Assembly (NCBI GenBank): GCA_018992685.1
Contig: JACVGT010000007.1
Span: 42,378 to 106,377, forward strand
Length of the DNA: 64,000 nucleotides
DNA from: Theionarchaea archaeon
GTDB taxonomy: Archaea; Methanobacteriota_B; Thermococci; Methanofastidiosales; SZ-28-30
Reading direction: 5' to 3'
Shown: piece by piece, positions 6,528 to 35,951 of the stretch
Layout of the letters: each line of letters begins with the position of its first letter
How positions within the stretch are numbered: position 1 is the stretch's first letter
Translations under genes and position numbers: made by a program
The notes under the pieces: model-generated
What the model saw: the letters and a program-made list of their open reading frames with translations, nothing else
The model's database searches: none
What the model was told of the DNA's origin: nothing

Positions 6528-7448
6528 CTATTTCTTTCCCTTCTCGTAGTGTTTCCCAAGAGCTGCCGGTGGTACAGCTCTCTTCACTGCTCCAGCCAAG
6601 ACCAGAATAGTCAGAACATAGGGAATCATCTGAATGAACTGATTGGCAGCCACTGTCCCCTGCAATTTCATTTGCAGAGCATCAGTAAAACTGAAGAGAA
6701 GACTTGCTCCAAAGGCTCCTGCAGGGTTCCATTTGCCAAAGATGTTCGCCGCCAGAGCGATGAATCCTCTCCCTGCAGACATGTTTTGGCTGAACAGGTT
6801 CAACCATCCCAGGGACAGGTAGGCACCCCCCAACCCCGATAGCATGCCGCTGGCTGTTACAGATAAATACTGAATCCGGTGCACGTTGATTCCCACGGTA
6901 TCTGCAGCCTCTGGGTGCTCACCTACTGCCCTAATTCTCAATCCCAGAGGAGTCCTAAACATGATGACCCAGGCAGCAACAACAATCACAATCATGATGT
7001 ATACCAGAGGGTTTTGCTGGTCAAAGATATCCTTGAGGTAGGGAATGTCTCTGATCAGTGGGATGGACAAGGGCTTCAATCCGGAAACAGGGTCTGACGC
7101 TCCCCTATTTCCCCAGATGATCTGGAGCAACAGCGTGGTAAGCCCAAGAGAAAGAATATTCACTCCCACTCCACTGACGACCTGATTTGCTTTGAACTGG
7201 ATACATAGTACCGCATGCAGCAATCCAAAGGCCCCGCCTGCCAGGACTGCGCACAGCACACCGATCCAGGGATTTCCCAGAAAATGTGTGCCCACTACAC
7301 CAGCAAAAGCACCCATCAGGATCATGCCTTCCAGTCCGATATTAATGATACCACTGCGTTCTGAGTACGCGCCCCCGATGGAGGCCAGGGCAATAGGGGG
7401 AGATATCCTTAAGGTTGCACCCAGCAGTATGGCAATACTAGAAAGCAT
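6528..7448 (-). CDS. Nucleoside/simple-sugar ABC transporter permease (NupC/YufQ-like)
   Basis: ERSGIINIGLEG, RAVGEHPEAA, GRGFIALA motifs; start ATG 7448. Confidence 0.9.
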   Translation of the reverse strand: MLSSIAILLGATLRISPPIALASIGGAYSERSGIINIGLEGMILMGAFAGVVGTHFLGNPWIGVLCAVLAGGAFGLLHAVLCIQFKANQVVSGVGVNILSLGLTTLLLQIIWGNRGASDPVSGLKPLSIPLIRDIPYLKDIFDQQNPLVYIMIVIVVAAWVIMFRTPLGLRIRAVGEHPEAADTVGINVHRIQYLSVTASGMLSGLGGAYLSLGWLNLFSQNMSAGRGFIALAANIFGKWNPAGAFGASLLFSFTDALQMKLQGTVAANQFIQMIPYVLTILVLAGAVKRAVPPAALGKHYEKGKK

Positions 7449-8517
7449 TGGCAATCCCTCCTTTCCTGATTTTCTTGAAGATTCTGAACATTTCAGGAGC
7501 TGCCACAAACAGTATCACGATACCCTGGATCACCACCACCAGATCTGTGGGGACATTGGTCATCTGTTTCATGACCATCCCTCCGTTCCGCAGAGCACCA
7601 AACAGCAAAGCACCCAGTACTACTCCCACAGGATGGTTTCTCCCCAGAACAGCAACAGCGATCCCGTCAAATCCGTACCCCGGGGAGAATCCGAAAATAA
7701 ACCGTTTGTGCAGTCCCAGTACCTCGCCTGATCCACCCAGTCCTGCCAGCATTCCTGATATGAACATCGATATGATAATGCTTTTCTGGACACTTATCCC
7801 CCCGTATTCTGCAGCTGTGGGGTTGAGTCCTACTGCTCTGATTTCGTATCCCAGGGTAGTCCTATACAGAATATAGTACGTGACACCGACGCAAATGAGA
7901 GCCACGATTATGGCTGCTGATAACTGGGTGGAGGGTACCAACCGTGGAAGCTGGGCTGATGGTGTAACAACATCAGTCTGAGCAATCCATCCTTCAGCCT
8001 TCAAAGGATAGTTGGCCAGATAGTTGCACAGGAGCACACCGATGTAATTCATCATAATGGTGGTAATCACTTCATGGGCACCCACCCTGGCTTTCAACAC
8101 ACTGGGCACCAGAGACCATGCACCACCTGCAAGGGCCCCGGCTCCCAGGGCCAAAGGAATGTGAAAGAACCAGGGAAGCCAGGCAAAGTTGATCCCTACC
8201 ACGGCAGCAGTAATGGCCCCAACGTACAGTTGTCCCTCACCACCAATGTTGAATAACCCACATCGAAAGGCGAAGGCCACGGTCAGCCCTGTAAAGATGA
8301 GGGGTGTTGCCCTTGTGAGGGTCTGGGCAAAATCATACGTACTGCCGAATGCACCTTCGTACAGTGCCTTGTATGCCTCAAGAGGCGATGAGCCTGCAAG
8401 ATATACAATCACTGCTCCCACCAAAAGGGCAGCAATAACAGCAATGATTGAGATAAAAATGTCCATCAGACTTTCTTTTTGAATAACCTGAGTTATTTTT
8501 ATTAATCGTGGATTCAT
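7438..8517 (-). CDS. Nucleoside/simple-sugar ABC transporter permease (NupB/YufP-like)
   Basis: GLFNIGGEGQ, HEVITTIMMNY, GYGFDGIAVA motifs. Confidence 0.9.
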   Translation of the reverse strand: MNPRLIKITQVIQKESLMDIFISIIAVIAALLVGAVIVYLAGSSPLEAYKALYEGAFGSTYDFAQTLTRATPLIFTGLTVAFAFRCGLFNIGGEGQLYVGAITAAVVGINFAWLPWFFHIPLALGAGALAGGAWSLVPSVLKARVGAHEVITTIMMNYIGVLLCNYLANYPLKAEGWIAQTDVVTPSAQLPRLVPSTQLSAAIIVALICVGVTYYILYRTTLGYEIRAVGLNPTAAEYGGISVQKSIIISMFISGMLAGLGGSGEVLGLHKRFIFGFSPGYGFDGIAVAVLGRNHPVGVVLGALLFGALRNGGMVMKQMTNVPTDLVVVIQGIVILFVAAPEMFRIFKKIRKGGIANAF

Positions 8518-10043
8518 GCGTGTCCACCTGCCATCAATAATCCCAGTTCTTCTTCAGTGGTCTTCTGAGGATCTCGCTCTCCCACAATTTTCCCTTCGTA
8601 GATGACAGCGATCCTGTCAGAGAGACAGCGAACCTCATCTAAATCTGCAGAAATGAGAAGTATGGCCTTGTCCTTTTTCCTCATGCTGAGAAGGGTTTCA
8701 TGGATGAACTCGATTGCGCCCACGTCGAGACCTCTGGTAGGCTGTGAAGCGATAATAATCTCGGGCTCTCTTCCCAGTTCTCTGGCCACAATCACTTTCT
8801 GCTGGTTTCCACCTGACAGATATTTGACCTCACTGTGTACCCCAGTTCCTCTAATGTCAAAGGTCTCCACCAGCTCGGACGCATATGAATCCACCTTATC
8901 ATATTCCATTCTGAACCCGCGGGAAAAAGGAGCCTTAAAGTGGGATCCCAGTATCAGATTCTCGGATAGAGAGAAATCCTGGATGAGCCCTCTCTTCTGG
9001 CGATCTTCAGGGATGTGGGATACTCCTGCGTTGATGAAGTCCCTCGGGGAGGAATGTGTTAGATCTTCCCCGTTTACAAGAATCTTCCCCCCGCTTGGGC
9101 TTCGCAGTCCCGTTGCCGTTTCTGCCAGTTCCAACTGGCCATTGCCTTCAACTCCCGCAATGCCAAGAATCTCACCTTTCCGCAGTTCCAATGTTATCCC
9201 CTGTAGGGCTTTCACTCCTCTCTCATTGTATGCTTCCAGGTTCTGCATCTGCATCACAGCCCCCTTTGGGGGGTGAGGAGGTTTTTCCACTACCAGGCAG
9301 ACTTCTCTGCCCACCATCATTCTTGCCAGACTGGCAACATCTGTTTCCCCGGTGTGAACTGTTCCCACCAGTTGTCCTTTTCTCAGCACGGTGATGCGGT
9401 CACAGGTCGCCATGGGTTCCTTCAGTTTGTGGGTGATGAAAATGATAGTCTTTCCTTCTTCTTTTAACGATTTCATAACTTTGAACAGTTCTTCCCCTTC
9501 TTGTGGGGTCAAGACTGCTGTTGGTTCATCCAGAATGAGAATTTCAGCTCCCCGGTACAATGCTTTCAGAATCTCTACTCGCTGTTCAATGCCTACTGAT
9601 ATATCCTGGATCTTGGCTCTGGGGTCTACAGCAAGACCATACCGTTTTGAGATTTCTTCAACATCTCGTGCTGCCTTTTCTCTGTCCATGAGGAAATGAG
9701 TCTCCGGCTCAACACCCAGGACAACGTTCTCAGCCACAGTGAAGGGAGGCACTAACATGAAGTGCTGGTGGATCATGCCAATACCCAGTGAGATCGCATC
9801 ATTGGGATTTGTTATCGCAGTGGGCTTACCATTAACAGAAATTTCACCAGAATCAGGCTGGTATAGCCCATACAAGACGTTCATTAACGTGGTCTTTCCC
9901 GCACCGTTTTCTCCAAGAAGAGCATGAATTTCTCCTTTTCTAACTGAAAAAGTAATATCGTCATTCGCCAGAACACCAGGGAAGCGCTTGGTTATGTGTT
10001 GCATCTCCACAGCATTGATGGGTTCTGCATTCATTGCCATCAT
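8514..10043 (-). CDS. Tandem-domain ABC ATPase (NupA/YufO-like)
   Basis: GENGAGKT, ILILDEPT, LSGGNQQK, QPTRGLDVGA; start among ATG 10043/10040/10034. Confidence 0.93.
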   Translation of the reverse strand: MMAMNAEPINAVEMQHITKRFPGVLANDDITFSVRKGEIHALLGENGAGKTTLMNVLYGLYQPDSGEISVNGKPTAITNPNDAISLGIGMIHQHFMLVPPFTVAENVVLGVEPETHFLMDREKAARDVEEISKRYGLAVDPRAKIQDISVGIEQRVEILKALYRGAEILILDEPTAVLTPQEGEELFKVMKSLKEEGKTIIFITHKLKEPMATCDRITVLRKGQLVGTVHTGETDVASLARMMVGREVCLVVEKPPHPPKGAVMQMQNLEAYNERGVKALQGITLELRKGEILGIAGVEGNGQLELAETATGLRSPSGGKILVNGEDLTHSSPRDFINAGVSHIPEDRQKRGLIQDFSLSENLILGSHFKAPFSRGFRMEYDKVDSYASELVETFDIRGTGVHSEVKYLSGGNQQKVIVARELGREPEIIIASQPTRGLDVGAIEFIHETLLSMRKKDKAILLISADLDEVRCLSDRIAVIYEGKIVGERDPQKTTEEELGLLMAGGHA

Positions 10044-10157
10044 AAGCGTATTTCCCTTAAAAAGGCTACCGGTTGCATCTCTGGTGGCAGTATTTGATGG
10101 GCGAATTCTCACGATAACAGCTTAGGCAGTTCCTGCAAAATCAGACACCTCGCCCCT

Positions 10158-12002
10158 CTACTTCCTCATGGCTGTCTTTCTTTCATGATTTTCGGTTCTA
10201 GCCTCTGCCCCTGGCACTCTTTTGTCTGCTCTCAGCACTGAGATGATGTTCTCGAGAGACTGGTCATAGTACAATACGCCCCTTTCTCTGAGAATCTCCA
10301 GTATGTGCAAAAGCTCTTTCTCCTCCAGATGGGAAAAGTGTTGCTGTACCTGGGTGAATGACGTTATGCTGTCACAGAAAACTAGAAGGTCGGTCTCGTC
10401 TCTGCTAAAGGTACAGGAAAGAGACCTTGATCCTTTTTCCTTAAAGGCAGAACAATCGGGATATTCTGTCCACTGATAATCGCTTCCAGCCCGGGAATAA
10501 AACTGCAGAAGTCTTTGAAAGGTGTTCCACAAAAGGTAGTGGCGAATTCTCCCTGCAAAGAATCCAAAGAATTCAAATCGTTCCCCCTCTGGCAGCTGCA
10601 AGACAGATGCGATTTCTGCCCACATGGGGTCTTTGTTGTAGGCATCCCTTTCATGTTCTGACATCTCATTGTAATATGGTGATCCCTTGTACAGTGTGAA
10701 GTACTTGGGGACAATGGAATACTTCCTCAGGAAGAATCTCAGAAATCTCAAGTTCACACAACTCTCCAGGACGTCTTCCTCAGTTTCAGGTGGCGTCTCT
10801 GCTACAAAATTCCCTTTGATCTCGAGGTTGTGTTGATCCCCGAGCTTGAGAGCCTGTATATTGTGGGCAAAAGAGTGTCTCTTTTCCATTTTCTTCAAGA
10901 GAGCATCAGTCATTGCTTCAAATCCGATCTGCACGATTTCAAAACAAACCTTTTTCATGGCACGTGCTGTATCGGGGTTGATGAAGATTGGAGATGCTTC
11001 TGCAAAAAGGCGGTAGGGACGTCCTCTTCTTTCAGAACTTTCCACAATCAGGGCAAGCAGATGGTGGAATCGCTTCTTGTTACCGGGGAGTTCAGTATCT
11101 ACAAATACGAATGTGTCACCACCGTGTCTCTTGGACTGGAATTCCAGTTCTTCGACAATGTTCTCAGGAGATCGAGCCCGATATGAGAATTCCTCATTCA
11201 GAACGCAAAATTTGCACCTGTTCCAGGGGCAGGAGCGCGACCCCCAAATGGGGATGATGACCCGCATGTCTTCATGAATGTGGGTTTTCAGTGCCGCAAA
11301 ATAGTCTGTGTGGTCTGCAAATGGGTATGAATCCAGATCACAGCTTTCAGAATGCTTGTTTGTTGAGATGATGGCGGCACCATCCCGGTACACCAGATGA
11401 GGGATCTCGGTGAACGTTCCCTCTCGTATCCCCTGAATCAGATGAACCAAAGGGTATTCTCCCTCCCCCCATACAGCGTAGTCAGCCAGCTCAAATACCT
11501 TCATAAAGGCGTGAGCCTGTTCATCATTGCGAATCCCTCCAATGACGATCTGTATTTCGGGGTTTAATTCTTTCAGTCGCCTCATTACATAAGAGCTCAG
11601 AAGCCACTGGTAGGTCTTTAGAGTAAATCCCGCCAGAGGTTCTTTGTAGAGGCCATTTTGGTATATGTAGTCATCGATTTTTGTTCGAAGTGTGTCTACA
11701 AAGGGAGGTATTTTCCCCTGATCAAAAAAGGGTGAAAAATACTGGTCGAGAACAGTCGTCTCGTGATGGGCACCTGAGAGATGTCTCACTGTATACAGAA
11801 CGGGAGTATTAAGAGAGGACAAGGATGAAAACACAGGATAGTCCCCAATGTGATCCTGGAGTTCTGACAGCTCCTCAGCAAGTATTAGATTCCAGTAGAT
11901 ATTTGTCACAGAGATTCCCCTTGATTGCAGGAACCCTTTCAGATATCCCAAAGCAGGATTGGGAATATCGTAACTGTAGGGGGGCAAACAGTTTAGTATC
12001 AT
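10158..12002 (-). CDS. Cobalamin-binding-type radical SAM enzyme (RiPP-maturation/C-methyltransferase-like)
   Basis: PNPALGYLK N-terminus, IVIGG and VWGEGE B12-domain motifs, SRSCPWNRCKFC, QIGFEA; ATGA overlap with upstream gene. Confidence 0.85.
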   Translation of the reverse strand: MILNCLPPYSYDIPNPALGYLKGFLQSRGISVTNIYWNLILAEELSELQDHIGDYPVFSSLSSLNTPVLYTVRHLSGAHHETTVLDQYFSPFFDQGKIPPFVDTLRTKIDDYIYQNGLYKEPLAGFTLKTYQWLLSSYVMRRLKELNPEIQIVIGGIRNDEQAHAFMKVFELADYAVWGEGEYPLVHLIQGIREGTFTEIPHLVYRDGAAIISTNKHSESCDLDSYPFADHTDYFAALKTHIHEDMRVIIPIWGSRSCPWNRCKFCVLNEEFSYRARSPENIVEELEFQSKRHGGDTFVFVDTELPGNKKRFHHLLALIVESSERRGRPYRLFAEASPIFINPDTARAMKKVCFEIVQIGFEAMTDALLKKMEKRHSFAHNIQALKLGDQHNLEIKGNFVAETPPETEEDVLESCVNLRFLRFFLRKYSIVPKYFTLYKGSPYYNEMSEHERDAYNKDPMWAEIASVLQLPEGERFEFFGFFAGRIRHYLLWNTFQRLLQFYSRAGSDYQWTEYPDCSAFKEKGSRSLSCTFSRDETDLLVFCDSITSFTQVQQHFSHLEEKELLHILEILRERGVLYYDQSLENIISVLRADKRVPGAEARTENHERKTAMRK

Positions 12003-13327
12003 TCATGGGCCTCCTTTTGCTTACTGACATATGTTTTCACCTGTGGCAGCCCGAAAACCTGCCTGGTAAAATCCACGGTGAAACAGCCAGGAGCATCCAG
12101 TGTTCCTTTCTCTCTCAATGCAATGGCAGGGCATCCCCCCATACACCGGGGAAGCATGACGCAGGCTTTACACTCAGTAATGGCCAGGGGGTTGCGGGCC
12201 ATCCACGAGTAGTATGCAGGTGTTTTGTCCAGAGAACCACGAGAGTTCAGAGACCCCACAGCATGGCGGGTGTCTCCTACCAAAGACATGCACTTGTAGA
12301 CACGGCCATCCACATTGATGATGTGAAACCAATCAGTAATACCAGCACACAAGGAAAAGTACACACCAATTCCAAAAGGGAGTGTGGTGAATCCTTTGTG
12401 AGCAGCCATTTCCATGACTTCACTGAAGAGATCTGAAGTCCCCGGATATCCGTAAGAACTGTAGTAGTGGGTACAGTAATCCATGCGGGGAGTAACCGTC
12501 CCAAAGTAGGTATGGGCCTTCTCAAGGCCAGCTTCTCTCAACATTTCAAGAAAGGTAATGATATTGTCTTCCCATACGTTAATTCGCATAATCAGATTCA
12601 TGCCATGATCTTCAACACATTGGGCACCCTCTACCACTGATTGCAGGCTGCTTGTCTCATCAGGGAAAACCCTCCTGGTGTGGTGGTAGTACTCAGGTGC
12701 ATCAAAAGTGATATGAATATCTGCTACCGTGAACTGTGAGAGGTTGTCGAGTCCTTCAGGAGTAAGGAGAGTTCCATTGGTGAAGAGCTTGATGAGGAGA
12801 GAAATACCTGCTTCACTACATGCCTCTTGCAGGGTTTCAGTAAGAGAGGTTATGCACTCTTGATTCAAGAGTGGTTCTCCTCCGTAAAGACTCACAAAGA
12901 GCGTGTCAATGCCTCGTACGATCTGATTCTCAGCAAAGGTTACCCCTCTTTCTGCTACCTTCTTGCTCATATGCCCAGTGCAGGCAGAAGAATTCCTGTA
13001 GCAGTACCTACAGTTCAAGTTGCATTCGTGCGTGACAATGAAGTTCAAGAATGCAACTCTCCCAAGAGGAGAGCCCCGATATCCTGTAGAGGGGAGGCAC
13101 CACTTCTTCTGTTCCAAGGAAGCCTGTATCAAGTTCATCTCTTGACCGGTGTCCTCTATGAGAAGTCCCTGCTTTGATAGTGCTTCAATAATCTCAGGGG
13201 AGCCTTTTCCGGTCATGAGGACGTCATACATTTCAGAATCAATCACTGTGAGAGACCCGTTCAATGTATTGTATACAAGGAAATCCTCTCTAAATGGGAT
13301 AATAAAGCAGTACTGTGATCTCTGCAT
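11999..13327 (-). CDS. Radical SAM/SPASM peptide maturase 2
   Basis: N-terminal RRE-like segment (FLVYNTLNGSL), CNLNCRYC, YGGEPLL, SPASM cysteines C..YKC..CKACVMLPRCMGGC..C. Confidence 0.9.
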   Translation of the reverse strand: MQRSQYCFIIPFREDFLVYNTLNGSLTVIDSEMYDVLMTGKGSPEIIEALSKQGLLIEDTGQEMNLIQASLEQKKWCLPSTGYRGSPLGRVAFLNFIVTHECNLNCRYCYRNSSACTGHMSKKVAERGVTFAENQIVRGIDTLFVSLYGGEPLLNQECITSLTETLQEACSEAGISLLIKLFTNGTLLTPEGLDNLSQFTVADIHITFDAPEYYHHTRRVFPDETSSLQSVVEGAQCVEDHGMNLIMRINVWEDNIITFLEMLREAGLEKAHTYFGTVTPRMDYCTHYYSSYGYPGTSDLFSEVMEMAAHKGFTTLPFGIGVYFSLCAGITDWFHIINVDGRVYKCMSLVGDTRHAVGSLNSRGSLDKTPAYYSWMARNPLAITECKACVMLPRCMGGCPAIALREKGTLDAPGCFTVDFTRQVFGLPQVKTYVSKQKEAHE

Positions 13328-13332
13328 AATAA

Positions 13333-14676
13333 TCAAACCCAGATGATCTTTCCCGCCTTGAACCGGTCAGGAAGCTTCTTTTCGAGGTACCAACGAAGCT
13401 GATGTTTCATTTCCTGGTACGGTGCATAGCATCCAACTGCGTGGAATGTCCCATGCTTTTCATATGCAACAGCAGCACATCCTCCCCCACATGAGGGTAG
13501 CATCTGGCACTCACGACATTCCGGTATCTGCAGGGGGTCTCTGCTCATCCAGTCGTAGTAGGTCCATGTATACTCTGGTATGGTACCGTCTTCTGAAATA
13601 TGACCAATGGAATGGTTTTTCTGCCCCACGAAGGTGAGACACTTGTAAAGATCTGCATGAGGATCTATGATGAAGGTTCCTTCCCCTAGGAATCCACAAA
13701 AGACGTGAGCTGGCTTGTGGGTGCGAATGACAGCAGCCGCTTGACCTTTTTGATCCACAATATCTCTGAATTCAGCAAGTACCTCACGGGCTTCTTCCTC
13801 TTTAATGCACTTGGAGTAGTCCTTACATGCTTGAGTTGATGCCCCCACTGTACCACAGCGCACAGGGACATTCTTGAATCCCCTCTCCTGAAGCTCGTCC
13901 AGCAGCTCACCGATGAACGGTCTGCTTTCAGAATCCACGTTCACCCTAAAGCTCACTCCGACGTTTTGGTCCTGCAGAATGTGAGCTGATTGCATCATGT
14001 CATCAAAGGTACCTCCTCCACTCTTGTAGAATCGTTTGGTGTCGTGGATGCGTTTGGGACCATCCAGCGTGATCTGTACGTAGTCTGTGTGGTAGCGCTT
14101 CAACGTTTCAGCTATTTCAGGTGTGACCAGAGTACCATTTGTCACCATCATTGTCACGTATGAGATGCCGTGGTCTTCTGCCCAGGAAAAGCAGGAATCC
14201 ATAATGTACTCAGAATCGTCGAATCTGAGCAGTGGTTCACCACCATACAGCGACACAGAAAATTCCCGCGCGTGAGTGTCTTCCACGTATTTCTTTATGA
14301 ATTTCACAGTTCTTTCCCTGGTGTCAGCATTCATTGTCCCGCGGAATAGCTCTCCTTTTCCTTCATAGCAGTATGGACATGCTAGATTGCAGGCATATGT
14401 CGTTATGAGCATGAAATGGGGAAAATCCACCGTGTATTTCCTGTATTCATATCCTACCTTGAATTTTCGAGATTCATCAAAATCATCTTCTATGATTACC
14501 TTGAGCGCTGCAAGAGATTTGAACAAGTCAGAATCCAGAATGTCAATATTCCCGGCTTTCAAAGCTTCCTTCAGCTCTTCATCTATTCCTATTACTGCAC
14601 CACTCATCATGTTGGCCAACAGGTATTCTCCAGGAGTCTCTGTGGGGATAACTATGTTGAAGTTTGACACTTTCAT
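13333..14676 (-). CDS. Radical SAM/SPASM peptide maturase 1
   Basis: N-terminal RRE-like segment (MKVSNFNIV..YLLANMMSG), CNLACPYC, YGGEPLL, ITLDG, SPASM C..YKC..CRECQMLPSCGGGC..C; SD GAGGTGA before ATG 14676. Confidence 0.92.
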   Translation of the reverse strand: MKVSNFNIVIPTETPGEYLLANMMSGAVIGIDEELKEALKAGNIDILDSDLFKSLAALKVIIEDDFDESRKFKVGYEYRKYTVDFPHFMLITTYACNLACPYCYEGKGELFRGTMNADTRERTVKFIKKYVEDTHAREFSVSLYGGEPLLRFDDSEYIMDSCFSWAEDHGISYVTMMVTNGTLVTPEIAETLKRYHTDYVQITLDGPKRIHDTKRFYKSGGGTFDDMMQSAHILQDQNVGVSFRVNVDSESRPFIGELLDELQERGFKNVPVRCGTVGASTQACKDYSKCIKEEEAREVLAEFRDIVDQKGQAAAVIRTHKPAHVFCGFLGEGTFIIDPHADLYKCLTFVGQKNHSIGHISEDGTIPEYTWTYYDWMSRDPLQIPECRECQMLPSCGGGCAAVAYEKHGTFHAVGCYAPYQEMKHQLRWYLEKKLPDRFKAGKIIWV

Positions 14677-14689
14677 GAGGTTCACCTCA

Positions 14690-14720
14690 GGAAAAAAGAA
14701 AGGCAGGTTGAACTGCCTTT
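14690..14720 (-). terminator. Hairpin plus U-tract between precursor gene and maturases
   Basis: Minus strand AAAGGCAG-TTCAAC-CTGCCTTT followed by CTTTTTT. Confidence 0.7.
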
Positions 14721-14730
14721 TGTTATAGAC

Positions 14731-14838
14731 TTACACATAGGGGTGGCAAATTCTGCAGCACCAGGAACCAGTTCCTTCCGTGATGCACAGAGGCTCCATG
14801 ATTTGCTCTTCTGCTTCGATGAGGATAGTCATGTTCAT
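14731..14838 (-). CDS. Putative RiPP precursor peptide, 35 aa (MNMTILIEAEEQIMEPLCITEGTGSWCCRICHPYV)
   Basis: Translated by hand; acidic leader plus Cys-rich core; directly upstream of two rSAM/SPASM genes; own TATA box and downstream hairpin. Confidence 0.85.
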   Translation of the reverse strand: MNMTILIEAEEQIMEPLCITEGTGSWCCRICHPYV

Positions 14839-14857
14839 AGATTCCACTTCCTATTGC

Positions 14858-14872
14858 TATATAAAGTTTCTC
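14858..14872 (-). promoter_or_regulatory. BRE-TATA promoter of the precursor gene
   Basis: Minus strand GAGAAACTTTATATA, 20-26 nt from ATG 14838/14832. Confidence 0.65.
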
Positions 14873-15183
14873 TTTATCTTTATATACTTTTCTATTCATA
14901 TGAATTCTACTAATTTCGTCACTCTTATAGTAATCAAATAAGAGCAAATGCAGAAGCCAGTAGTCTTTAAAGACAATATCTCTTGATATTTTGGACTACT
15001 TTCGTCCATGTGAGGTTAAATGCAGAGATTCTCAACCGAAATGCCCCCTTTTCTCACTTTTGTAAAAAGTGATAATGTTCGGTAGAAGAGCTCTCCCTCA
15101 CAGATTTTGCAGAATCTGGTAATTGCACCTGCGATCATGAGCTGGCCCGAGAACAAAAAAGTAAAAAGTAAAAAGAAGAAGTA

Positions 15184-16224
15184 TTAATCCCAGGTGTATT
15201 CACCGGCCTCGTCAATACCAGTGGGAACCTTGATTTCGCCAGATGCGATCTGCTCCCTGTAGTCTTCAATGATGTCTCGTATGTCATTAGGCACGTGCTC
15301 GCAAGCACCAACACCATTCTCTTTTGCGCCAAAGCTCTGTATGCCGCCTGCAAAAGTCCCGTCGATTACCTGCCGTATGGTCTCGTATACAGCTACATCC
15401 ACACGCTTTATCATACTGCATAAGAAGGTCGTTACCGGTACTCCCTCAATGGTGTCGCACTGATCCGCATCTACGCCAATGACCAATCCACCACGTTCAA
15501 AAGCCGCCTGGATAGCTCCCAAGCCAGATCTTCCGGCAGCAGCGAACACGATGTCTGCCTCTCCGTCATACTGAGCAAGGGCAAGCTCCTTTCCTTTTGC
15601 AGGGTCTACCCAGTCGCCCACATACTTCCAGGTGACCTCAACATCTGGATTGACGTACTCGGCTCCAAACTTGTAGCCAGCCAGGAATTTTCGAATCAAG
15701 GGTATGTCCATTCCACCTACAAATCCAATCATATCAGTTTCAGTTTTCAGACCAGCAGCTGCTCCTACCAGGAAACTACCTTCGTTTTCCCTGAATACAA
15801 GAGAAGCCACATTAGGTTTGTCTACCACCATGTCCACGATCGCAAACTTCTGGTCGGGGTATTCATCTGCAACAACAGTGATGGCATCTGCCTGATCAAA
15901 TCCTATACCTATTATCAGTGCATATTCCCCGGACTTGGCGTACTGCCTGTGGAATCCTTCGTACTCAGCGATGGCTGTAGGTTCAACATAGTCAAATTCA
16001 ATGCCGAAATCATCTCTAGCCTTCTTGATACCTACGTAACAACTATCATTGAAGCTCTTGTCTCCTAGTCCACCAGTGGCAAAGACAACAGCAATTTTCA
16101 ATTCGGGGGGTGGGGGTGTAGAAGTTGGTGTCGGAGTTGTGGTTTCTTCCTCCTGTCCGATGCATCCCAATGTAAGGGAGCACAAAACTACCAGGGTGAA
16201 CAGCATCTTAATACTTTTGTTCAT
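15184..16224 (-). CDS. BMP-family nucleoside-binding lipoprotein of the ABC transporter
   Basis: Signal peptide with LGCIG lipobox-like motif, T/P linker, GGLGDKSFN, IGFVGG, IGVDADQ, SMIKRVD; SD GGAGGG before ATG 16224. Confidence 0.92.
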   Translation of the reverse strand: MNKSIKMLFTLVVLCSLTLGCIGQEEETTTPTPTSTPPPPELKIAVVFATGGLGDKSFNDSCYVGIKKARDDFGIEFDYVEPTAIAEYEGFHRQYAKSGEYALIIGIGFDQADAITVVADEYPDQKFAIVDMVVDKPNVASLVFRENEGSFLVGAAAGLKTETDMIGFVGGMDIPLIRKFLAGYKFGAEYVNPDVEVTWKYVGDWVDPAKGKELALAQYDGEADIVFAAAGRSGLGAIQAAFERGGLVIGVDADQCDTIEGVPVTTFLCSMIKRVDVAVYETIRQVIDGTFAGGIQSFGAKENGVGACEHVPNDIRDIIEDYREQIASGEIKVPTGIDEAGEYTWD

Positions 16225-16585
16225 ATGATTCCCTCCACGCTCACAGAGCTTGAGTAGATTTAAATACGTTTCGATGAAGCACCGAGGGTTCACTTTGATG
16301 TTAGAAGGAGCGTATGCGAGTCGTTGCTTTTCCGAAATGATGGTCCATTTGCAGGCCAATGAAGTCCTCCTCAAGAGCAACTGGGATTCGCTTTTTCTTT
16401 CTTACCCTCTTCCAGCTTTTCCTTCTTGTTTACAGGGTTCCGGTACAGTCCTTGTGTGAGAATCCCCTTTCTCATTCTTGAAGAAGTTCCTTCATTCTTG
16501 AGACCCCTCGCCCAGCCTCAAGGAAGCGTTGCTCTTCAGAACCAAAAAAGCTTTAGGGTCAAGGACTGAAAGGGAGGTGAAAGAT

Positions 16586-16717: not shown

Positions 16718-17009
16718 AGTTGAAATAATTAGAACTCTTTGCTGAAGTCCCATCGGCATTCAAAATGTTCTCGTTCTCACTACCTGTTCTGGTGGGTAGG
16801 ACGCCCCGGCAGCCCTGTCCCAAAGCTTCTGCTCTCACGTACATTTTGATCTCCTGGTTCTTTCAACTTCCTTCCTCTGGAGACTGAGATGGAGGTTCAG
16901 TAGCGTGGATTCCTGCAGCCTGCATCTCAGTCCATGTGTACAATCCTGTCTGAAAAACGGGATACACCTACGGAAGATTTATATAGGGTTTATATTAATT
17001 TTCTGTTGC

Positions 17010-17903
17010 ATGGAAGCGCACCAGTTGGACATTGTCTATGCATACGTTCAGTATTGCAGCGACACGAAGGAAGTGAGGTACTCAAAATTCCATAAATGGT
17101 ATAAGCCTTATAACCGTAAACAATCTACCTTCAGACTTTTGAATAGGGCAGTTGAGGAAAAGATCATATTTCCACCACGCATTTTCTGCATACAGAAAGT
17201 TAAGGTCAACCTGGTAGAACACAAGGAAGTTCCCCTCGTTGATCAATTCGAGAAGATTAGCAGCCAAGAAGACACGTTCTATGCAGTCCTCTTGCTGGGG
17301 GCTCATTCACTTCTGTATTTTTCGGCAAGTGATACCGGGACCAACTTGACATATTCGAAATGCATCTTTCCGAGCTATCCCCCAAAGAAGGAGATACAGC
17401 ATATTGATCCGTGCCTTCATGAACCCAGAAAGCTACCTTGTATGGCCCCACCTGACTGGTCTTCTTTTGACTGGGAAGTGTTTCAGAAAAGGAGGGATCC
17501 CACTGAATCAAGTATCAAGATTGGAGGGGTGCTTGGAGTTTCCCACAGAAGAGTCCTGAATAGCTATAAAAGAATTCTAGGAGACTGTTCCGTGTGGATT
17601 CCTTTCTTTCCAAAGGGCTACGGGAATTACACACCCTACTTTGTTTCTTTTGAAACGGATTATGAGACTGGGGTTGTTGAGGAACTGAAAAAGATCGACA
17701 GATCCAGCTACGTTTACAGAATTGATGACACAATGCTTCTGAATCTGTTCTTTGAAAGGCGTCTTGAGATTGACAGCATGTTGCAGTTAGAAAAAAAGGG
17801 GATAATACACGATCTCCGTGTATCCTCCCCAATGTATAGTTTTGAACGATTTCAATCTCAACAAGGCATTCCAGAACCAGGGCCATCTCCAGACAAAGTG
17901 TAA
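17010..17903 (+). CDS. Lrp/AsnC-like winged-helix protein, probable regulator
   Basis: DWEVF..DPTESSIKIGGVLGVSHRRV HTH-like segment followed by a beta-rich RAM-like region; TATA AAGATTTATATAG about 25 nt before ATG 17010. Confidence 0.65.
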   Translation: MEAHQLDIVYAYVQYCSDTKEVRYSKFHKWYKPYNRKQSTFRLLNRAVEEKIIFPPRIFCIQKVKVNLVEHKEVPLVDQFEKISSQEDTFYAVLLLGAHSLLYFSASDTGTNLTYSKCIFPSYPPKKEIQHIDPCLHEPRKLPCMAPPDWSSFDWEVFQKRRDPTESSIKIGGVLGVSHRRVLNSYKRILGDCSVWIPFFPKGYGNYTPYFVSFETDYETGVVEELKKIDRSSYVYRIDDTMLLNLFFERRLEIDSMLQLEKKGIIHDLRVSSPMYSFERFQSQQGIPEPGPSPDKV

Positions 17904-19886: not shown

Positions 19887-20636
19887 TCATTTCAAGTTAA
19901 CATAATCTACGGTAACAGCAATGACCAGTATGGTAAGAACCAGAGAAGATCCCACCAGGAAAATCGCAAAGTGAATAGTCCCGGACACAAGATTTGAAAC
20001 CAGATACACAGCTGTCAACGATATCAACGTTACAAAGGCCAGAAGCAGTGATTCTCTCAAGTGGTTCAACACAATTCCAATGCTCAACCCGATGGCGGTG
20101 ACAGAATCCAGCCCATCCACCACAATGGCAGGAAGCATATACAGAAACAAGATCCCCAGCATGAACCCCAGCAGCACAACAAAGGCATAAAATAATGCAG
20201 ACACAAGCCCTGGTTCTGATATCATCTGAGTGACAGCCAGGATTCCTCCAACGATCAATATTCCGGAGATTACCCCTGCAATGAAGAAGGCCACGATGAT
20301 AGAGAATATGTGACTCTCTATCTCCCGGATTCCCTTTCCAATGGACGATTCGCCAGTAGCTATTCCCACCTTGGTCATGCCGCAGATGACTGCAGCCCCA
20401 CACACAACAATCAGGAAGATGACAGCACATAGGACGAGCAGCTGGCTGAATCGTTCTCCCAATAAGTCTGGAATCGTCTCCACGAGTTCTGAAATCGACG
20501 AAAAGCTTCCAAAGGCTGATGAAAAGATGTACAAGCTGAACCCTATCACAGATAGAGCAGGAACAATAAGAGATGGCTGATTCTTCAAACTGTCAAGTGA
20601 CAGGTAGAGTACATCCAGAAGTCCCAGCCGTCTCAT
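19887..20636 (-). CDS. Multi-pass membrane protein, unknown function
   Basis: About six hydrophobic helices; start ATG 20636. Confidence 0.75.
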   Translation of the reverse strand: MRRLGLLDVLYLSLDSLKNQPSLIVPALSVIGFSLYIFSSAFGSFSSISELVETIPDLLGERFSQLLVLCAVIFLIVVCGAAVICGMTKVGIATGESSIGKGIREIESHIFSIIVAFFIAGVISGILIVGGILAVTQMISEPGLVSALFYAFVVLLGFMLGILFLYMLPAIVVDGLDSVTAIGLSIGIVLNHLRESLLLAFVTLISLTAVYLVSNLVSGTIHFAIFLVGSSLVLTILVIAVTVDYVNLK

Positions 20637-20858
20637 AGACTGAAGGTATTCACTAAGAATAAATAGGTTTCCCCTGCTGTACACCCTCTCCTTTACCGTT
20701 TCGCATGCTCCCTCTCAGGCTGTTCTTGATAATCCTTCGTTGATCTTCATCACGTTCCTGTCAGGTGATTTCACGTCCTGCTTGGTGATAGTTTCTACCC
20801 CACTCTGGAAGACCAAACCTTTTTATGGAAAATTCCGACAGGAGTATCAGGTGATCAA

Positions 20859-31926: not shown

Positions 31927-33456
31927 TCACTTTTTTCTAATTACTACACCTAGAAACATCAGAATGAATATCAGTGCTGTTCCGAGGCAGCCGTCAGTTC
32001 CACATTCACAACCACAGTCTCCATCAGCTGGTGGAGATACAGTGGGGTTGCTGATAATCTGCTGTACCGCAGCGTATGCATCTACACGGCCCCATCCCCA
32101 GAGGCAGTCCTTGTTGACATTGCCCTTGTCGATGGCAGTAGCACCCATGCAGTTCTTAACTTGTAAGGGCGTTGCTATACCACGGGCGTCCAGCATCAGG
32201 GCAGCGACACCCGCTATGTGCGGTGTGGCCATTGATGTACCAGACATTGAAACATCACTGCATGAGGTTCCGGCATCGGCAGCGTAGATTGATACGCCGG
32301 GAGCTGTGATGTCGGGCTTTGTTCTTCCATCAGTGGTGGGACCTCTGGAAGAGAAGCTGGCTAGAGCATCTGACTTGTCAGAAGCACCAACGGTAATGAC
32401 ATCTGTTGCATCACCGGGTGTATTGATAGTGCAGCAGGAAGAGCCCTCATTTCCAGCAGCTACAACCATTACAACACCCTCTCTCACTGCCCAGTTGCAT
32501 TCTTGGGCTATGCTGCTGGTTCCATCTCCACCCAGACTTCCGAATCCGATCACTATAATGTCCGCTCCGATGGAGACACCCCAATCGATACCAGCAATGA
32601 TATTGGAGATAGTGCCGTTTCCAGAAGAATCCAGTACCTTTCCAATCATGAGAGAAGCACCTGGTACCACACGTGAAACGACAGAGGCAACGTGAGTCCC
32701 ATGACCATTATCATCGTATGGTGTAGGATACCCATTAACAAAGTCTTTCCAAGCTACAATTTTTCCTGCGATATCACAATGAGTAGGGTCAGCACCTGTG
32801 TCGAGAATGCAGACCTTGATGCCTGAGCCATCATATCCAACAGCCCAGCAGTCGTCAACATTGATTAGCGGGATACTGTCAGCCAGCAAGGCGTGAGCAT
32901 TCCCATTGGCCTCAATGAATTCAACCAGGGGCTCTTCAGACAGAGCTCTTAGGTTAGAAACGCGAATGTCAGCTGTTGCCCCCATCCGGCTTAGAAACCG
33001 GTAGTGGATGTTGCCGAATTGACTCACTTTGCAGAAAGCATCGGGTTCTTTGAACCAGACCAATACTCTCAGAGTATCACTTGCGTTCATGGTGGCAATC
33101 ATGTCTCTCACAGACCACCTCATCTTCATTACGCTGTTTGGGACAACACTCACGTACTCGCTGGGACCGACCTTCTTGAGGTACATTTTTGGAATCTTGA
33201 GCGTCCTTTCGTCGACCCGTGTAACTGGCAATTTCTCAATATTGATTTCCTTTGCAATCGTGTTCATCACACCAGCATCAACAGAAAAAAACAGGTAGTC
33301 AGAGTCTTCACCTCTAATTTCAACTTCCAGCTTCAATACATCTCTGCCTTCGTGCCCAAAAGTCTGCACATGGAAAGTGACCTTCTCTGGAATTGCATTG
33401 ACAGTGACCAATGACATCATGAGTATGACAGCTGTGGCGAATCCCCTTCGACTCAT
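31927..33456 (-). CDS. Subtilisin-like S8 protease with C-terminal anchor
   Basis: ILDTG, HGTHVA, AAGN, SGTSMATPH; signal peptide; C-terminal GCLGT + TM helix + RKK. Confidence 0.93.
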   Translation of the reverse strand: MSRRGFATAVILMMSLVTVNAIPEKVTFHVQTFGHEGRDVLKLEVEIRGEDSDYLFFSVDAGVMNTIAKEINIEKLPVTRVDERTLKIPKMYLKKVGPSEYVSVVPNSVMKMRWSVRDMIATMNASDTLRVLVWFKEPDAFCKVSQFGNIHYRFLSRMGATADIRVSNLRALSEEPLVEFIEANGNAHALLADSIPLINVDDCWAVGYDGSGIKVCILDTGADPTHCDIAGKIVAWKDFVNGYPTPYDDNGHGTHVASVVSRVVPGASLMIGKVLDSSGNGTISNIIAGIDWGVSIGADIIVIGFGSLGGDGTSSIAQECNWAVREGVVMVVAAGNEGSSCCTINTPGDATDVITVGASDKSDALASFSSRGPTTDGRTKPDITAPGVSIYAADAGTSCSDVSMSGTSMATPHIAGVAALMLDARGIATPLQVKNCMGATAIDKGNVNKDCLWGWGRVDAYAAVQQIISNPTVSPPADGDCGCECGTDGCLGTALIFILMFLGVVIRKK

Positions 33457-33672
33457 TTTCAAATTCTCACCTCCTCTTTGATTAGTTATACACATACTTT
33501 TCCGTACACTTATAAGTATTTTGAATCAATTATTTTGCATATATGTAATTAAAGGACGATAACCTGAGAAACCACAAAACGAAGACGTTCAACGAACTCG
33601 AATGACTCCAGTGATTCGTTCTTCTGGTTCCCGCTCAGACTCAGATAGAACAACAAAAAAATAAAAGAAAAG

Positions 33673-34641
33673 TTAGTTTGAAGGAGTACACACGTTGGTG
33701 ACATCGACAATCCAGGTACCAGTATATGTACCCACTTCCTGTGGATCAGGTACAGTACCACCAAAAGTGAGTATCCGAGTAATACTGTTAGAATAGCCTA
33801 GGATTCCAGCATCTGGGATTCCTGCTTCATCCACATCTCTGTAATCATCATAAATGATTTGAGCTGCTGCAGTCAACACAGTCTGAACTGAACTTTCATC
33901 TTCAACATAGAACTGTCCCACCGGAATGGTATACGTACCTGCTATCAGGTCAGCCCCTGTGACTGAGATATCAACTTCTCCATTCGAGACCATGCTGATC
34001 ACGTTGTCATTGGTAGCTGTGAGAACTGCTCCCGGGTCTGCGCTCCCAAAATCAATGCTATTACTCTGGACTGCGAACGAGAGGAACTTGTTCACTGTGG
34101 CGTCGCCCTGCGCACTGCTGACAGTGGGATTTGCCGAGTCAGTGGCCTCGATATGATAGTGCCAGTAGTCTGTGGCAGTGGGCCGGGCAATTCCAGAAAC
34201 CTGCCAATTGAGGTCGAAGGTGACATCTTTGTTATTCGGAATGATGGTAACGTTGGTGGTTGAGACATAGCTGTTGGCGACATTCGCCGCCCAGTTTGCA
34301 CTGTTGGTGAAGTCGACGACTGCAGGGTTTGTTCCAGGGTTGGGATTTGTCCATGTCCAGGTGTAGTAGTTTCTGCCATTTCCTGAACTGTCTGAGCCAT
34401 AGTAGAGTTTGATGACAATGATGAGAATGTCTGCAAGTTTGTTACTGTCACTTACGGTGGCATTGATAGTGTATTGTACCTCGGGGTCAATTGTCAACGG
34501 TCCAACTGTGTTGTTTGTCACCTCTGGGGCTTTGTTGTTGACTGTGACTGAGATATCTACGTTCTCAGAATCCGCTGCCGTGTTTTGTATACTGAGTACA
34601 GCAATACCCACTATTGCTATGACGATGACTTTCCTGTTCAT
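33673..34641 (-). CDS. Secreted beta-rich cell-surface protein
   Basis: Signal peptide, N/T/V-rich composition, several NxT/S sequons; SD AGGTGA. Confidence 0.75.
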   Translation of the reverse strand: MNRKVIVIAIVGIAVLSIQNTAADSENVDISVTVNNKAPEVTNNTVGPLTIDPEVQYTINATVSDSNKLADILIIVIKLYYGSDSSGNGRNYYTWTWTNPNPGTNPAVVDFTNSANWAANVANSYVSTTNVTIIPNNKDVTFDLNWQVSGIARPTATDYWHYHIEATDSANPTVSSAQGDATVNKFLSFAVQSNSIDFGSADPGAVLTATNDNVISMVSNGEVDISVTGADLIAGTYTIPVGQFYVEDESSVQTVLTAAAQIIYDDYRDVDEAGIPDAGILGYSNSITRILTFGGTVPDPQEVGTYTGTWIVDVTNVCTPSN

Positions 34642-35114
34642 CTGATCACCTATCTTATGCTTTTTTAAGTTATGATATATAAAGGTATTTGTGAAAATTA
34701 CCGTTTATGAGATAATTTGTGAGAAAATGTGTGATGAAACGACTTCATGTGTGAAGCAGTGTGATTTCTATTGTACGTTCAGATAAATCCCGCGGGTTTC
34801 AGGAAAGTTCTGAGATTGCGTGCTCTTCATATCTGGATTCCTGGAGTTGAAATAGTACTCATGATGAAAGAACGTTTCAGACATGTGGACAGAGATCAGT
34901 TGGGTAAAGAATCCCTTGGCACTGGGGCATTTCGCTCCACGGATTGTTTGGGGAGCTTTCATCAGAGAGAACGGAAAGAGATCATCTTCAAGAACGCTGG
35001 AATGTCCGCTCTCGTGCTGGTATGGGTGGCAGGATGTCTGGTATGCTGTTTGTTCCCATTCTTGCAGGTCAATTCTTCCAAAAAGCTTTTAAGCCTCATT
35101 CGTGTACGAGGTTC

Positions 35115-35333
35115 ATGCCAGAGAAACCATTGGATCTTATTCATGGAAGTCTTGACAACAAGATATCAGTACAGCTCAAAGATGGAAGAGAAATCATAGG
35201 TGTCCTCGCAGGATATGACCTGGACTTTAACCTAACCATAGACAAAGCCACACTGGTGGACCAAGGCGGAAGGAAAGGTCTGGGAAAAATCGTGCTGCGG
35301 CACAACAACGTGGTGTCTATAAAGCCGTTCTAG
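35115..35333 (+). CDS. Sm-like (Lsm) RNA-binding protein, 72 aa
   Basis: PLDLI..VQLKDGREIIGVLAGYD..NL, LGKIVLR..NVVSI; TATA AAAAGCTTTTAAG upstream. Confidence 0.88.
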   Translation: MPEKPLDLIHGSLDNKISVQLKDGREIIGVLAGYDLDFNLTIDKATLVDQGGRKGLGKIVLRHNNVVSIKPF

Positions 35334-35826
35334 GGTTCTCTTGGTATGTCCCCTGGTATCCTTGTTGGGCCTTGTCAGACATTTTTGCGAAGAATAACTG
35401 CAGTAGCCGTGCATTGTGCTGTAGAGAAATACCATGAGGGTTGTAAACCACAAGCAGGGAAATACTCGCTCCATGGAATCCTGCATCCCACACTGCACTC
35501 TCTATGGTGGCACCTGACCGCAAGAGAGACGAACGCGGCCTGCCCAGAGCCACCATGTCAGAGGGGATTGTTACAATCTCGTTGAAGGTCACCCTGTAAC
35601 AGCCTGGAGGGAGGGTAACCCATTCATTGACAAAAGACATTTCCTCTGTGGAAGGCAAAACTCTTTCTTCGTTTGTGAAATCGATCCTGCCTTTACCAGT
35701 GAATTTCTCTACCCTCTTGAGTGTGAGATCAACACCATTTGGAGTGAGCTGTGTAGAAAGATCACGGAAGTGCGTAATCATTCCTTTTTCAATTAACTGG
35801 CTGAGACTGCTATCACTGAGAATCAT
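35317..35826 (-). CDS. dut: Archaeal dUTPase (dCTP deaminase/dUTPase family)
   Basis: PNGVDLT, RPRSSLLR, AVWDAGF, GYQGTYQ. Confidence 0.85.
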   Translation of the reverse strand: MILSDSSLSQLIEKGMITHFRDLSTQLTPNGVDLTLKRVEKFTGKGRIDFTNEERVLPSTEEMSFVNEWVTLPPGCYRVTFNEIVTIPSDMVALGRPRSSLLRSGATIESAVWDAGFHGASISLLVVYNPHGISLQHNARLLQLFFAKMSDKAQQGYQGTYQENPRTAL

Positions 35827-35951
35827 GGGGCTCATGTTCTGTCAGTGCTTAAAATGATTTGGTTTGAATCTCATTCCTTCCTGATGAGAACTGCAGTAAG
35901 AGATGCCATCAGTCCCACTCTGCCAGCCAGCAGAACCTCATGGTGCTGGGG

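Follow-up and report, generated by a model that had tools for sequence, protein, structure and literature searches.

A window of 64,000 nucleotides from the genome of an uncultured sediment archaeon of the Theionarchaea (contig JACVGT010000007.1, positions 42,378 to 106,377 of the forward strand) was analyzed. It carries on its minus strand a compact set of four genes encoding a 35-residue cysteine-bearing peptide, two radical S-adenosylmethionine (SAM) enzymes with SPASM domains, termed here matA and matB, and a class-B (cobalamin- or B12-type) radical SAM enzyme. With moderate confidence, the set is read as a self-contained cassette for a ribosomally synthesized peptide with post-translational modifications (RiPP), the product of which would be ranthipeptide-like with an added class-B radical SAM step. 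The broader claim is held more firmly: a real RiPP pathway very probably acts on the 35-residue peptide. A RiPP system had been proposed in a preliminary description of this DNA, and that reading is the best supported, given the conserved precursor, the family ranking of the maturases, a model of the peptide leader on matA and the fold of the third enzyme.

The precursor peptide and its family

The peptide consists of a leader of about 14 residues (1–14) and a conserved core that begins at E15-P16-L17-C18, with cysteines at positions 18, 27, 28 and 31. It was found upstream of the maturases in all three loci with readable DNA, namely the window, the locus of a sister species (L022) and a metagenome locus with unrelated genomic surroundings (L030). 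A conserved peptide in front of homologous maturases was what the preliminary description had proposed as a test of its reading. In the sister species, where matA is 92% identical, the peptide open reading frame (ORF) shows four synonymous codon changes, one non-synonymous change (the conservative R29K) and a changed stop codon. The metagenome locus is more distant, with 73% identity in matA and 51% in matB, and has a 35-residue ORF, MKLKVLIRANEQVFEPLCITEGTGSWCCKICSPYF, just before matA with its own GGAGG site. Between the window and this locus the core (residues 15–35) differs by 11 synonymous and three non-synonymous codons, and the leader (residues 1–14) by one synonymous and eight non-synonymous codons. 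Judged from these codon changes, the peptide gene is real and its core is under purifying selection.

A profile built from the three peptides was run against 1.84 billion representative proteins and gave five matches at E ≤ 0.001: two homologous peptides, 40 and 30 residues long, and three long repeat proteins, which were judged unrelated. Three further homologous peptides were present among cluster members, giving a family of eight with the common pattern EPxCxxEGxGxWCC. M1, L6, A9, E15, P16, C18, E21, G22, G24, W26, C27 and C28 are invariant in all eight. The tail beyond the CC pair is variable (RICHPYV, KICSPYF, VYWW, YV). Four of the peptides were compared with Pfam and NCBIfam and matched no family at E ≤ 10, in agreement with the earlier suggestion that the precursor lies outside the described families.

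A tblastn search of the peptide in its own genome returned the gene itself, with the remaining matches at noise level, and a degenerate DNA pattern of the core motif found the sister species only among 185,579 species genomes. A class-wide protein search gave an orthologue at E ≤ 1e-110 in two of 133 genomes, the host and the sister species, and the metagenome scan gave at least one orthologous locus (L030).

As a separate observation, a secreted-looking repeat protein of 499 residues (P0246) matched the peptide profile at E 5e-6. Many copies of PLCLFHGQGCWKR alternate in it with acidic spacers; it has P-L-C-x3-G-x-G-x-W in common with the archaeal core and looks like a multi-core precursor. 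The likeness could be due to chance or convergence.

Arrangement of the cassette

The coordinates of the cassette features are collected in Table 1.

Table 1. Features of the cassette, in positions of the window
Feature	Position	Strand	Basis
Inserted cassette, approximate extent, ~5.1 kb	10043-15183	minus	Flanking-operon comparison
Upstream regulatory region of the cassette	14849-15183	minus	Sequence and alignment with the sister locus L022
Precursor peptide gene, 35 aa, MNMTILIEAEEQIMEPLCITEGTGSWCCRICHPYV	14731-14838	minus	ORF and orthologues
Hairpin and U-tract between precursor gene and matA	14699-14720	minus	8-bp stem, then CTTTTTTCC
matA, radical SAM/SPASM peptide maturase, 447 aa from ATG, with a predicted RRE-like domain at its N-terminus (RRE, RiPP recognition element)	13333-14676	minus	Pfam, NCBIfam
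matB, second, distinct radical SAM/SPASM maturase, 442-445 aa	11999-13327/13336	minus	Pfam, NCBIfam
Class-B (cobalamin-type) radical SAM enzyme, CX4CX2C, C-terminal winged-helix domain, 614 aa	10158-12002	minus	NCBIfam, predicted fold

Two TATA-like boxes, GTATATAAAG and TTTATATA, are located 25–50 nt upstream of the peptide ORF (at about 14886-14874 and 14869-14862), and a purine-rich ribosome-binding site, GGAAGTGGA, stands 5' of the peptide ATG. Aligned with the sister locus, the upstream region is conserved over its last ~130 nt and its first ~50 nt and is scrambled in the middle. The conserved ~130 nt ahead of the peptide gene hold both TATA-like boxes, and at the far end a T-rich stretch right after the stop codon of the neighboring Bmp gene is retained in the sister species. 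A second upstream ORF (14896-15009, 37 aa) was judged non-coding; its ATG is lost in the sister species. No RNA family was found in the window with Rfam.

The spacer between the peptide gene and matA folds into a G+C-rich hairpin of eight pairs that starts 11 nt past the peptide stop codon (−13.9 kcal/mol). The hairpin is identical in the sister species. In the metagenome locus a different sequence at the same place forms 12 pairs followed by a U-tract (−21.8 kcal/mol); the hairpin is kept there by structure rather than by sequence. The hairpin and U-tract are likely an attenuator or terminator that sets the peptide:enzyme ratio.

If the ATG start of matB is used, a gap of 5 nt separates it from the matA stop codon. 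The gene for the class-B enzyme overlaps matB by ATGA, with AAAGGAGG upstream of its start, an arrangement that predicts translational coupling to matB. The single minus-strand unit of TATA promoter, 35-residue gene and hairpin with U-tract, followed by three tightly packed radical SAM genes, was thus recovered in every element as first described. The layout is considered to go beyond chance: the sister species retains the peptide ORF, hairpin and gene order, and the metagenome locus retains peptide, hairpin and both maturases.

The two SPASM maturases

All three enzymes match the Pfam Radical_SAM family (PF04055) above its gathering score of 29.5, with 70.1 bits for matA, 50.3 for matB and 54.7 for the class-B enzyme. 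matA and matB possess a CX3CX2C motif, and in matA its cysteines (C96, C100 and C103) are invariant in 18 sequences. The SPASM cysteines of matA (C327, C346, C387, C390, C396, C400 and C416) are likewise invariant in 18 orthologues. matB scored 45.4 bits against the SPASM model TIGR04085 (cut-off 27); for matA this model lay outside the best 25 NCBIfam families listed. The initial assignment of two enzymes with CxxxCxxC and SPASM cysteines therefore holds for both, through the invariant residues of the matA orthologues and the above-cut-off match of matB.

Among specific NCBIfam families, matA scored best with CefB (383 bits), followed by TIGR04463 (215.5), Clo7bot (202), geopeptide (184), PapB (160.9) and SCIFF (99). 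matB gave CefB (219), TIGR04463 (162), geopeptide (152), Clo7bot (145) and PapB (112.1). These models describe maturases of Cys-rich peptides, and both enzymes align with them from end to end. The curated cut-offs are 600 bits for CefB (NF038107), 525 for TIGR04463, 340 for PapB (NF047865), 425 for SCIFF and 349 for the sulfatase-maturase family TIGR03942. The orthologues in the metagenome locus showed the same NCBIfam pattern in a similar order. Lesser matches of matA were DynA (113 bits), QhpD (96), anSME (89), YhhB (88), the RumMC sactisynthase (75), FxsB (67) and GrrM/OscB (66). The closest solved relative of matA by sequence is the SCIFF maturase CteB (5wgg, E 1.5e-22). Grouping with anaerobic sulfatase maturases, raised earlier as an alternative, was ruled out by TIGR03942 scores of 89.1 (matA) and 50.8 (matB), and no sulfatase was present among 17 neighboring ORFs scanned by Pfam.

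matA has 17 full-length orthologue clusters at 56–92% identity. Orthologues of matB are 82% identical in the sister species and 51% in the metagenome locus, with 12 clusters at E ≤ 1e-60. The two maturases share 29% identity, and matA is closer to a pair of paralogues on contig C33 of the host (279 and 254 bits) than to matB (178 bits), so they represent two lineages and no recent duplication. From the sequences, this suggests two different jobs for matA and matB.

Predicted leader recognition by matA

Pfam PqqD gave no match in the maturases. The full-length alignment of matA to models of RRE-bearing maturases begins at residue 4. A complex of matA with the peptide was modeled from an 18-row alignment of matA and a five-row alignment of the peptide. 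It scored 0.69 in each of three runs, compared with 0.00 for the best of three controls; of 80 solved complexes 58 came up to this score, as did two of 110 mismatched pairs. The runs agreed in at least 36% of contacts, with a partner pLDDT (the predicted score of the local distance difference test) of at least 46. Confident contacts were formed by peptide residues 1–10 with residues 19–59 and 431–447 of matA. The strand-on-sheet arrangement is that of solved leader–RRE complexes. The model supports docking of the leader on a predicted N-terminal RRE-like domain of matA.

The class-B radical SAM enzyme

The third enzyme carries the motif CPWNRCKFC, a CX4CX2C. Its best NCBIfam family is TIGR03975 (RiPP maturation radical SAM C-methyltransferase), with 163.4 bits against a cut-off of 281.85; the alignment is full-length (enzyme residues 6-577 on model positions 6-594 of 606). 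Weaker matches were to BchE, PhpK, HpnR and the methyl-coenzyme M reductase (MCR) glutamine methyltransferase. An AlphaFold2 model based on 59 homologues was obtained with pLDDT 91 and a predicted template modeling score (pTM) of 0.90. Foldseek placed TsrM at the top (6wte, E 2.8e-16, TMq 0.53), together with OxsB, MgmA, TokK and CysS (E 3e-16 to 6e-14, TMq 0.45–0.53), followed by AprD4 and the MiaB/RimO methylthiotransferases. The predicted fold agrees with assignment to the class-B (cobalamin-type) radical SAM enzymes.

The last 100 residues are predicted to form three strands, three helices and a hairpin. Modeled alone, this C-terminal domain gave generic winged-helix matches only (Z 7–8.3; Foldseek E ≥ 0.17), with no RRE structure among those listed. 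Its modeled topology would suit a putative peptide-recognition element.

The enzyme belongs to a large family. The best 120 clusters listed range from 44 to 100% identity, all of their named sources are Theionarchaea or Methanofastidiosia, and CX4CX2C is present in 117 of the 120. As far as these sequences indicate, the family is large, lineage-specific and uncharacterised. The sister species holds the enzyme at 84% identity. Four further paralogues are encoded in the host genome. Those on contigs C3 and C10 are co-oriented with other radical SAM maturase genes; that on contig C7 has such genes beside it on the opposite strand, and the last is on a contig of 3.4 kb.

Insertion in an uptake operon

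The window (contig C13 in the numbering used here) is from a 3.0-Mb genome in 45 contigs; the class of the host comprises small-genome relatives and a well-sampled family of ~2-Mb genomes. On one side the cassette is bordered by a Bmp/PnrA substrate-binding gene (15184-16380) and on the other by an ORF for the ATPase of an ATP-binding cassette (ABC) transporter (8514-10112, start at ~10042) and two permease genes (7438-8517 and 6528-7508), all assigned by Pfam. In a sister genus (G003) the four Bmp–ABC transporter genes are contiguous, the Bmp gene ending at ~870-903 and the ATPase gene starting at ~893-902. In the sister species the same ~5.1-kb insertion splits the same operon. With an uninterrupted operon in the sister genus and the same insertion in the window and the sister species, the peptide and three enzyme genes form a discrete acquired unit. 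The ~5.1-kb unit is an inserted cassette.

In a genome of the same genus (G002) the contig stops 130 nt past the Bmp gene and is uninformative on presence or absence of the cassette. Contigs from four DNA runs of several studies contained the cassette or a relative at ~85% identity, and none among them spanned an empty insertion site. A 16-nt inverted repeat (10127-10142/15103-15118) was considered as the cassette ends and rejected as chance, since it is not conserved in the sister species and the same 5.5 kb contain 18 further pairs of comparable quality.

As a result of the split, the ATPase and permease genes of the Bmp/PnrA-type uptake operon now lie downstream of the class-B gene on the same strand. 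No terminator-like site was found between the class-B gene and the ABC ATPase gene. Either read-through or a new promoter may be needed for expression of the displaced genes.

Proposed pathway and alternatives

In the proposed pathway, the precursor would be expressed from its own archaeal promoter, and the hairpin and U-tract would limit read-through into the three enzyme genes. The RRE-like N-terminal domain of matA, and probably its counterpart in matB, would bind the leader strand MNMTILIEAE. matA and matB would each make one crosslink in the core EPLCITEGTGSWCC, most likely non-alpha thioethers (ranthionines). C18-x-x-E21 offers the best candidate donor–acceptor pair for the first crosslink. 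The second might be formed from C27 or C28, beside W26, with an acceptor near G22, G24 and W26. The class-B enzyme would then add a C-methylation (most likely) or another radical modification.

The steps of this pathway are held with different confidence. Action of the class-B enzyme on the cassette peptide is probable. Thioether crosslinks, suggested by the ranking of the maturase profiles and by the invariant C-x-x-E that matches the CrpC motif type, have slightly better than an even chance. Methylation as the class-B step falls a little short of even.

Several observations weigh against a ranthipeptide-like pathway with a class-B step. Every specific-family score of all three enzymes is below its curated cut-off, so function is not transferable from a named family. 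The class-B enzyme reached only 25.1 bits with Pfam B12-binding, compared with a gathering score of 32.1; of the B12-type enzyme originally proposed, the CxxxxCxxC motif and the cobalamin radical SAM fold were borne out and the B12-binding domain stayed below its Pfam threshold. AprD4, also among the high-ranking fold matches, is no methylase. The metagenome locus has no B12 homologue within the 13.3 kb examined, although peptide, matA and matB are present, and the third enzyme is therefore read as dispensable for some family members. In the peptide, C31 is missing in five of the eight family members, and with a variable tail behind the CC pair, this fourth Cys does not count as a family feature. 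The complex model covers matA and the peptide only, its partner pLDDT is below 50, and its high score may come partly from likeness to solved leader–RRE complexes. RiPP precursors usually have a leader that is more conserved than the core; here the core is the more conserved part. In addition, no protease, exporter or immunity gene was found in the cassette among the neighboring ORFs by Pfam. The absence of these genes from the cassette and the conserved core make a non-antibiotic role possible.

The same RiPP cassette might carry out another SPASM chemistry, with a sactionine (S–C-alpha) or an aromatic crosslink via Trp26 as the product (a cyclophane, a streptide- or darobactin-like C–C or C–O bond, or a Cys–Trp link). 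W26 is invariant and immediately precedes C27-C28, two different maturases are encoded for only three conserved cysteines, matA also matches DynA, YhhB, FxsB, GrrM/OscB and RumMC, and no family cut-off is attained. Those additional scores, however, are well under the ones for the Cys-rich and ranthipeptide-type maturases (383 to 161 bits). In the known three-residue cyclophane motifs, the third position is rarely Cys. The invariant C-x-x-E also fits the motif type reported for CrpC (PMC13692751), and a non-thioether or alpha-thioether chemistry is considered rather unlikely.

Somewhat less probable still is that the class-B enzyme is a passenger, co-transcribed but acting on another substrate or on no residue of the peptide, and that the pathway consists of the peptide, matA and matB, as the gene content of the metagenome locus would allow. 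These archaea hold a very large family of such enzymes (no fewer than 120 clusters at 44–84% identity), with four more paralogues in the host, the TIGR03975 score is under the cut-off and the C-terminal domain resembles generic winged-helix proteins only. Against this stand the ATGA overlap with matB, retention at 84% identity in the sister species, and coincidences of longest-contig figures that tie class-B homologues to peptide homologues (17680, 73878 and 3821). Three of the four class-B paralogues also lie beside other radical SAM maturase genes, and the three strands and three helices modeled at the C-terminus are arranged as one would expect for a peptide-recognition element.

That the short ORF is no substrate at all, being fortuitous or regulatory, and that the maturases modify a protein encoded elsewhere is very improbable. 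SPASM enzymes that act on proteins do exist, among them anSME, QhpD (PMC8326336) and CrpC (PMC13692751). Nevertheless, the core of the ORF is under purifying selection as judged from its codons, the ORF occurs in all three readable loci despite differing surroundings, and its leader was placed on the N-terminal domain of matA in models for which controls gave 0.00. No sulfatase, QhpC-like or large Cys-rich gene was found among the neighboring ORFs scanned, and the anSME and QhpD scores of 89 and 96 bits are low.

A more speculative variant, and a long shot, is a cofactor-like product, small and constrained in sequence, that the cell would keep rather than secrete as an antibiotic, with a C18–E21 tie, a Cys–Trp link at W26-C27-C28 and a class-B step beyond simple methylation. 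It is suggested by the core being more conserved than the leader, by the cassette having no protease, exporter or immunity gene and by the position of the unit inside a nutrient-uptake operon. The Cys–Trp link would be of the kind present in the cysteine tryptophylquinone subunit matured by QhpD. If true, it would be a crosslink type so far assigned to no RiPP maturase.

Comparison with known systems

The thioether reading of the cassette finds its nearest parallels in the ranthipeptides (SCIFF/CteB and freyrasin/PapB) and in CrpC, with which it shares a short Cys-bearing precursor with an N-terminal leader and a maturase with an N-terminal RRE (a predicted one in the cassette), a CX3CX2C core and a full seven-Cys SPASM domain. 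CrpC is a TIGR04463 member from Methanococcus voltae. According to a 2026 paper, this methanogen SPASM enzyme installs thioethers on a protein, forming ranthionines at C-X-X-Q/D motifs with the Cys ahead of the acceptor (PMC13692751). The invariant C18-x-x-E21 of the cassette peptide resembles the C-X-X-Q/D motif of CrpA described there (PMC13692751). The non-alpha thioethers formed by PapB, QhpD, CteB and NxxcB include Cys–Asp, Cys–Glu, Cys–Thr and Cys–Asn links, according to a review (PMC8326336). Ranthipeptides were 'only recently reported in archaea' in the words of a 2026 paper (PMC13635244). The cassette differs from the ranthipeptide systems in a precursor that is unrelated in sequence, with three conserved cysteines, an invariant Trp and a CC pair, and in having two non-identical maturases plus a class-B enzyme in an archaeal host; its thioethers are predicted ones.

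The best curated family for both maturases is CefB/Cys-every-fifth (NF038107), with matA residues 4-440 aligned to model positions 1-437 of 444. In the CefB system Cys recurs at every fifth residue, whereas the cysteines of the cassette peptide are at 18, 27, 28 and 31, and the family cut-off is not attained. No paper on the CefB/Cys-every-fifth name was found in the open-access literature.

The nearest known systems for the class-B enzyme are the TIGR03975 C-methyltransferases and other cobalamin radical SAM enzymes (PoyC, TsrM, TokK and MgmA/QCMT). It aligns over its full length with TIGR03975 and has a predicted fold like that of TsrM, OxsB, MgmA, TokK and CysS. PoyC is reportedly a B12 radical SAM enzyme that C-methylates a RiPP. 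The cassette enzyme differs in having CX4CX2C instead of the usual CX3CX2C, in its predicted C-terminal winged-helix domain, and in sitting with SPASM thioether-type maturases and not in a proteusin pathway; its use of cobalamin is predicted.

Two radical SAM maturases are reportedly present in thuricin CD-type clusters (Jia et al. 2025, going by the title). As in the cassette, two different radical SAM/SPASM enzymes stand side by side behind the precursor in those clusters. Thuricin CD itself has two precursors and alpha-thioethers, according to PMC8326336, and the cassette has one precursor and maturases that are only 29% identical.

No description of this cassette system was found in the open-access literature, supplements being outside the search; related archaeal clusters may appear in the supplementary tables of PMC13692751. 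What is new here is a precursor family without classification, a set of enzymes that fall outside all curated families, and the joint occurrence of two SPASM maturases and a divergent cobalamin-type radical SAM enzyme in an archaeal lineage not yet in culture. The cassette extends known biosynthetic logic and poses no challenge to current understanding. Archaeal radical SAM RiPPs are almost unexplored, and the cassette offers a compact, well-bounded and tractable target for genome mining in which the invariant residues indicate where modifications are to be sought.

Recurrence and related clusters

The full set of peptide, matA, matB and class-B enzyme was found in the window and in the sister species. 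Homologues from elsewhere coincide in their longest-contig figures. The figure 17680 is common to peptides P0244 and P0260, a matA homologue (P0005, 63%), a matB homologue (P0250, 53%) and a B12 homologue (P0213, 52%). Peptide P0245, matB P0254 and B12 P0174 have the figure 73878, peptide P0259 and matA P0007 the figure 5153, and peptide P0261 and B12 P0146 the figure 3821. These coincidences suggest that the full set recurs in more distant relatives.

The host genome gave 36 matches to matA at E ≤ 1e-5, many in tandem clusters, and in other organisms the maturase relatives at 26–37% identity have different Cys-rich short ORFs ahead of them. The cassette belongs to a broad and varied population of radical SAM RiPP clusters, abundant in the host and its relatives. 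Many sibling clusters with different Cys-rich peptides occur in Theionarchaea genomes, so that one solved case would help to read the others.

In the host genome (G000) the matA-like matches are spread over contigs C1, C3, C7, C9, C10, C17, C18, C19 and C33. Several have Cys-rich short ORFs ahead of them (contig C18, 10930-11088; contig C10, 13953-14156; contig C1, 310154-310240 and 310538-310645, the last two being two copies). On contig C2 an ORF of 75 residues (35882-36109, minus strand) contains six C-A-L-E repeats with the unit FCALEVQPT, and from its sequence looks like a repeat-type C-x-x-E precursor. It lies directly upstream of two tandem radical SAM/SPASM maturases (33099-35861), the best NCBIfam matches of which are CefB, PapB and TIGR04463, below the cut-offs. 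On a contig from a Thermotoga sp. metagenome-assembled genome (L024), several tandem Cys-rich short ORFs (2122-2771) are located upstream of a 29%-identical maturase. In two of them an acidic leader is followed by E-P-x-C-C, reminiscent of the E-P-L-C junction in the precursor family.

Other genes of the window

Adjoining the Bmp gene, a plus-strand ORF (16905-17903, 332 aa) has no Pfam match and is 87% conserved in the sister species. A minus-strand ORF at 19887-20684 (265 aa) likewise has no Pfam match. The plus-strand ORF at 109-2682 encodes a protein of 857 residues with an N-terminal ArsR-type helix-turn-helix domain and a long tetratricopeptide repeat (TPR)/MalT-like region, and is probably a large signal-sensing regulator.

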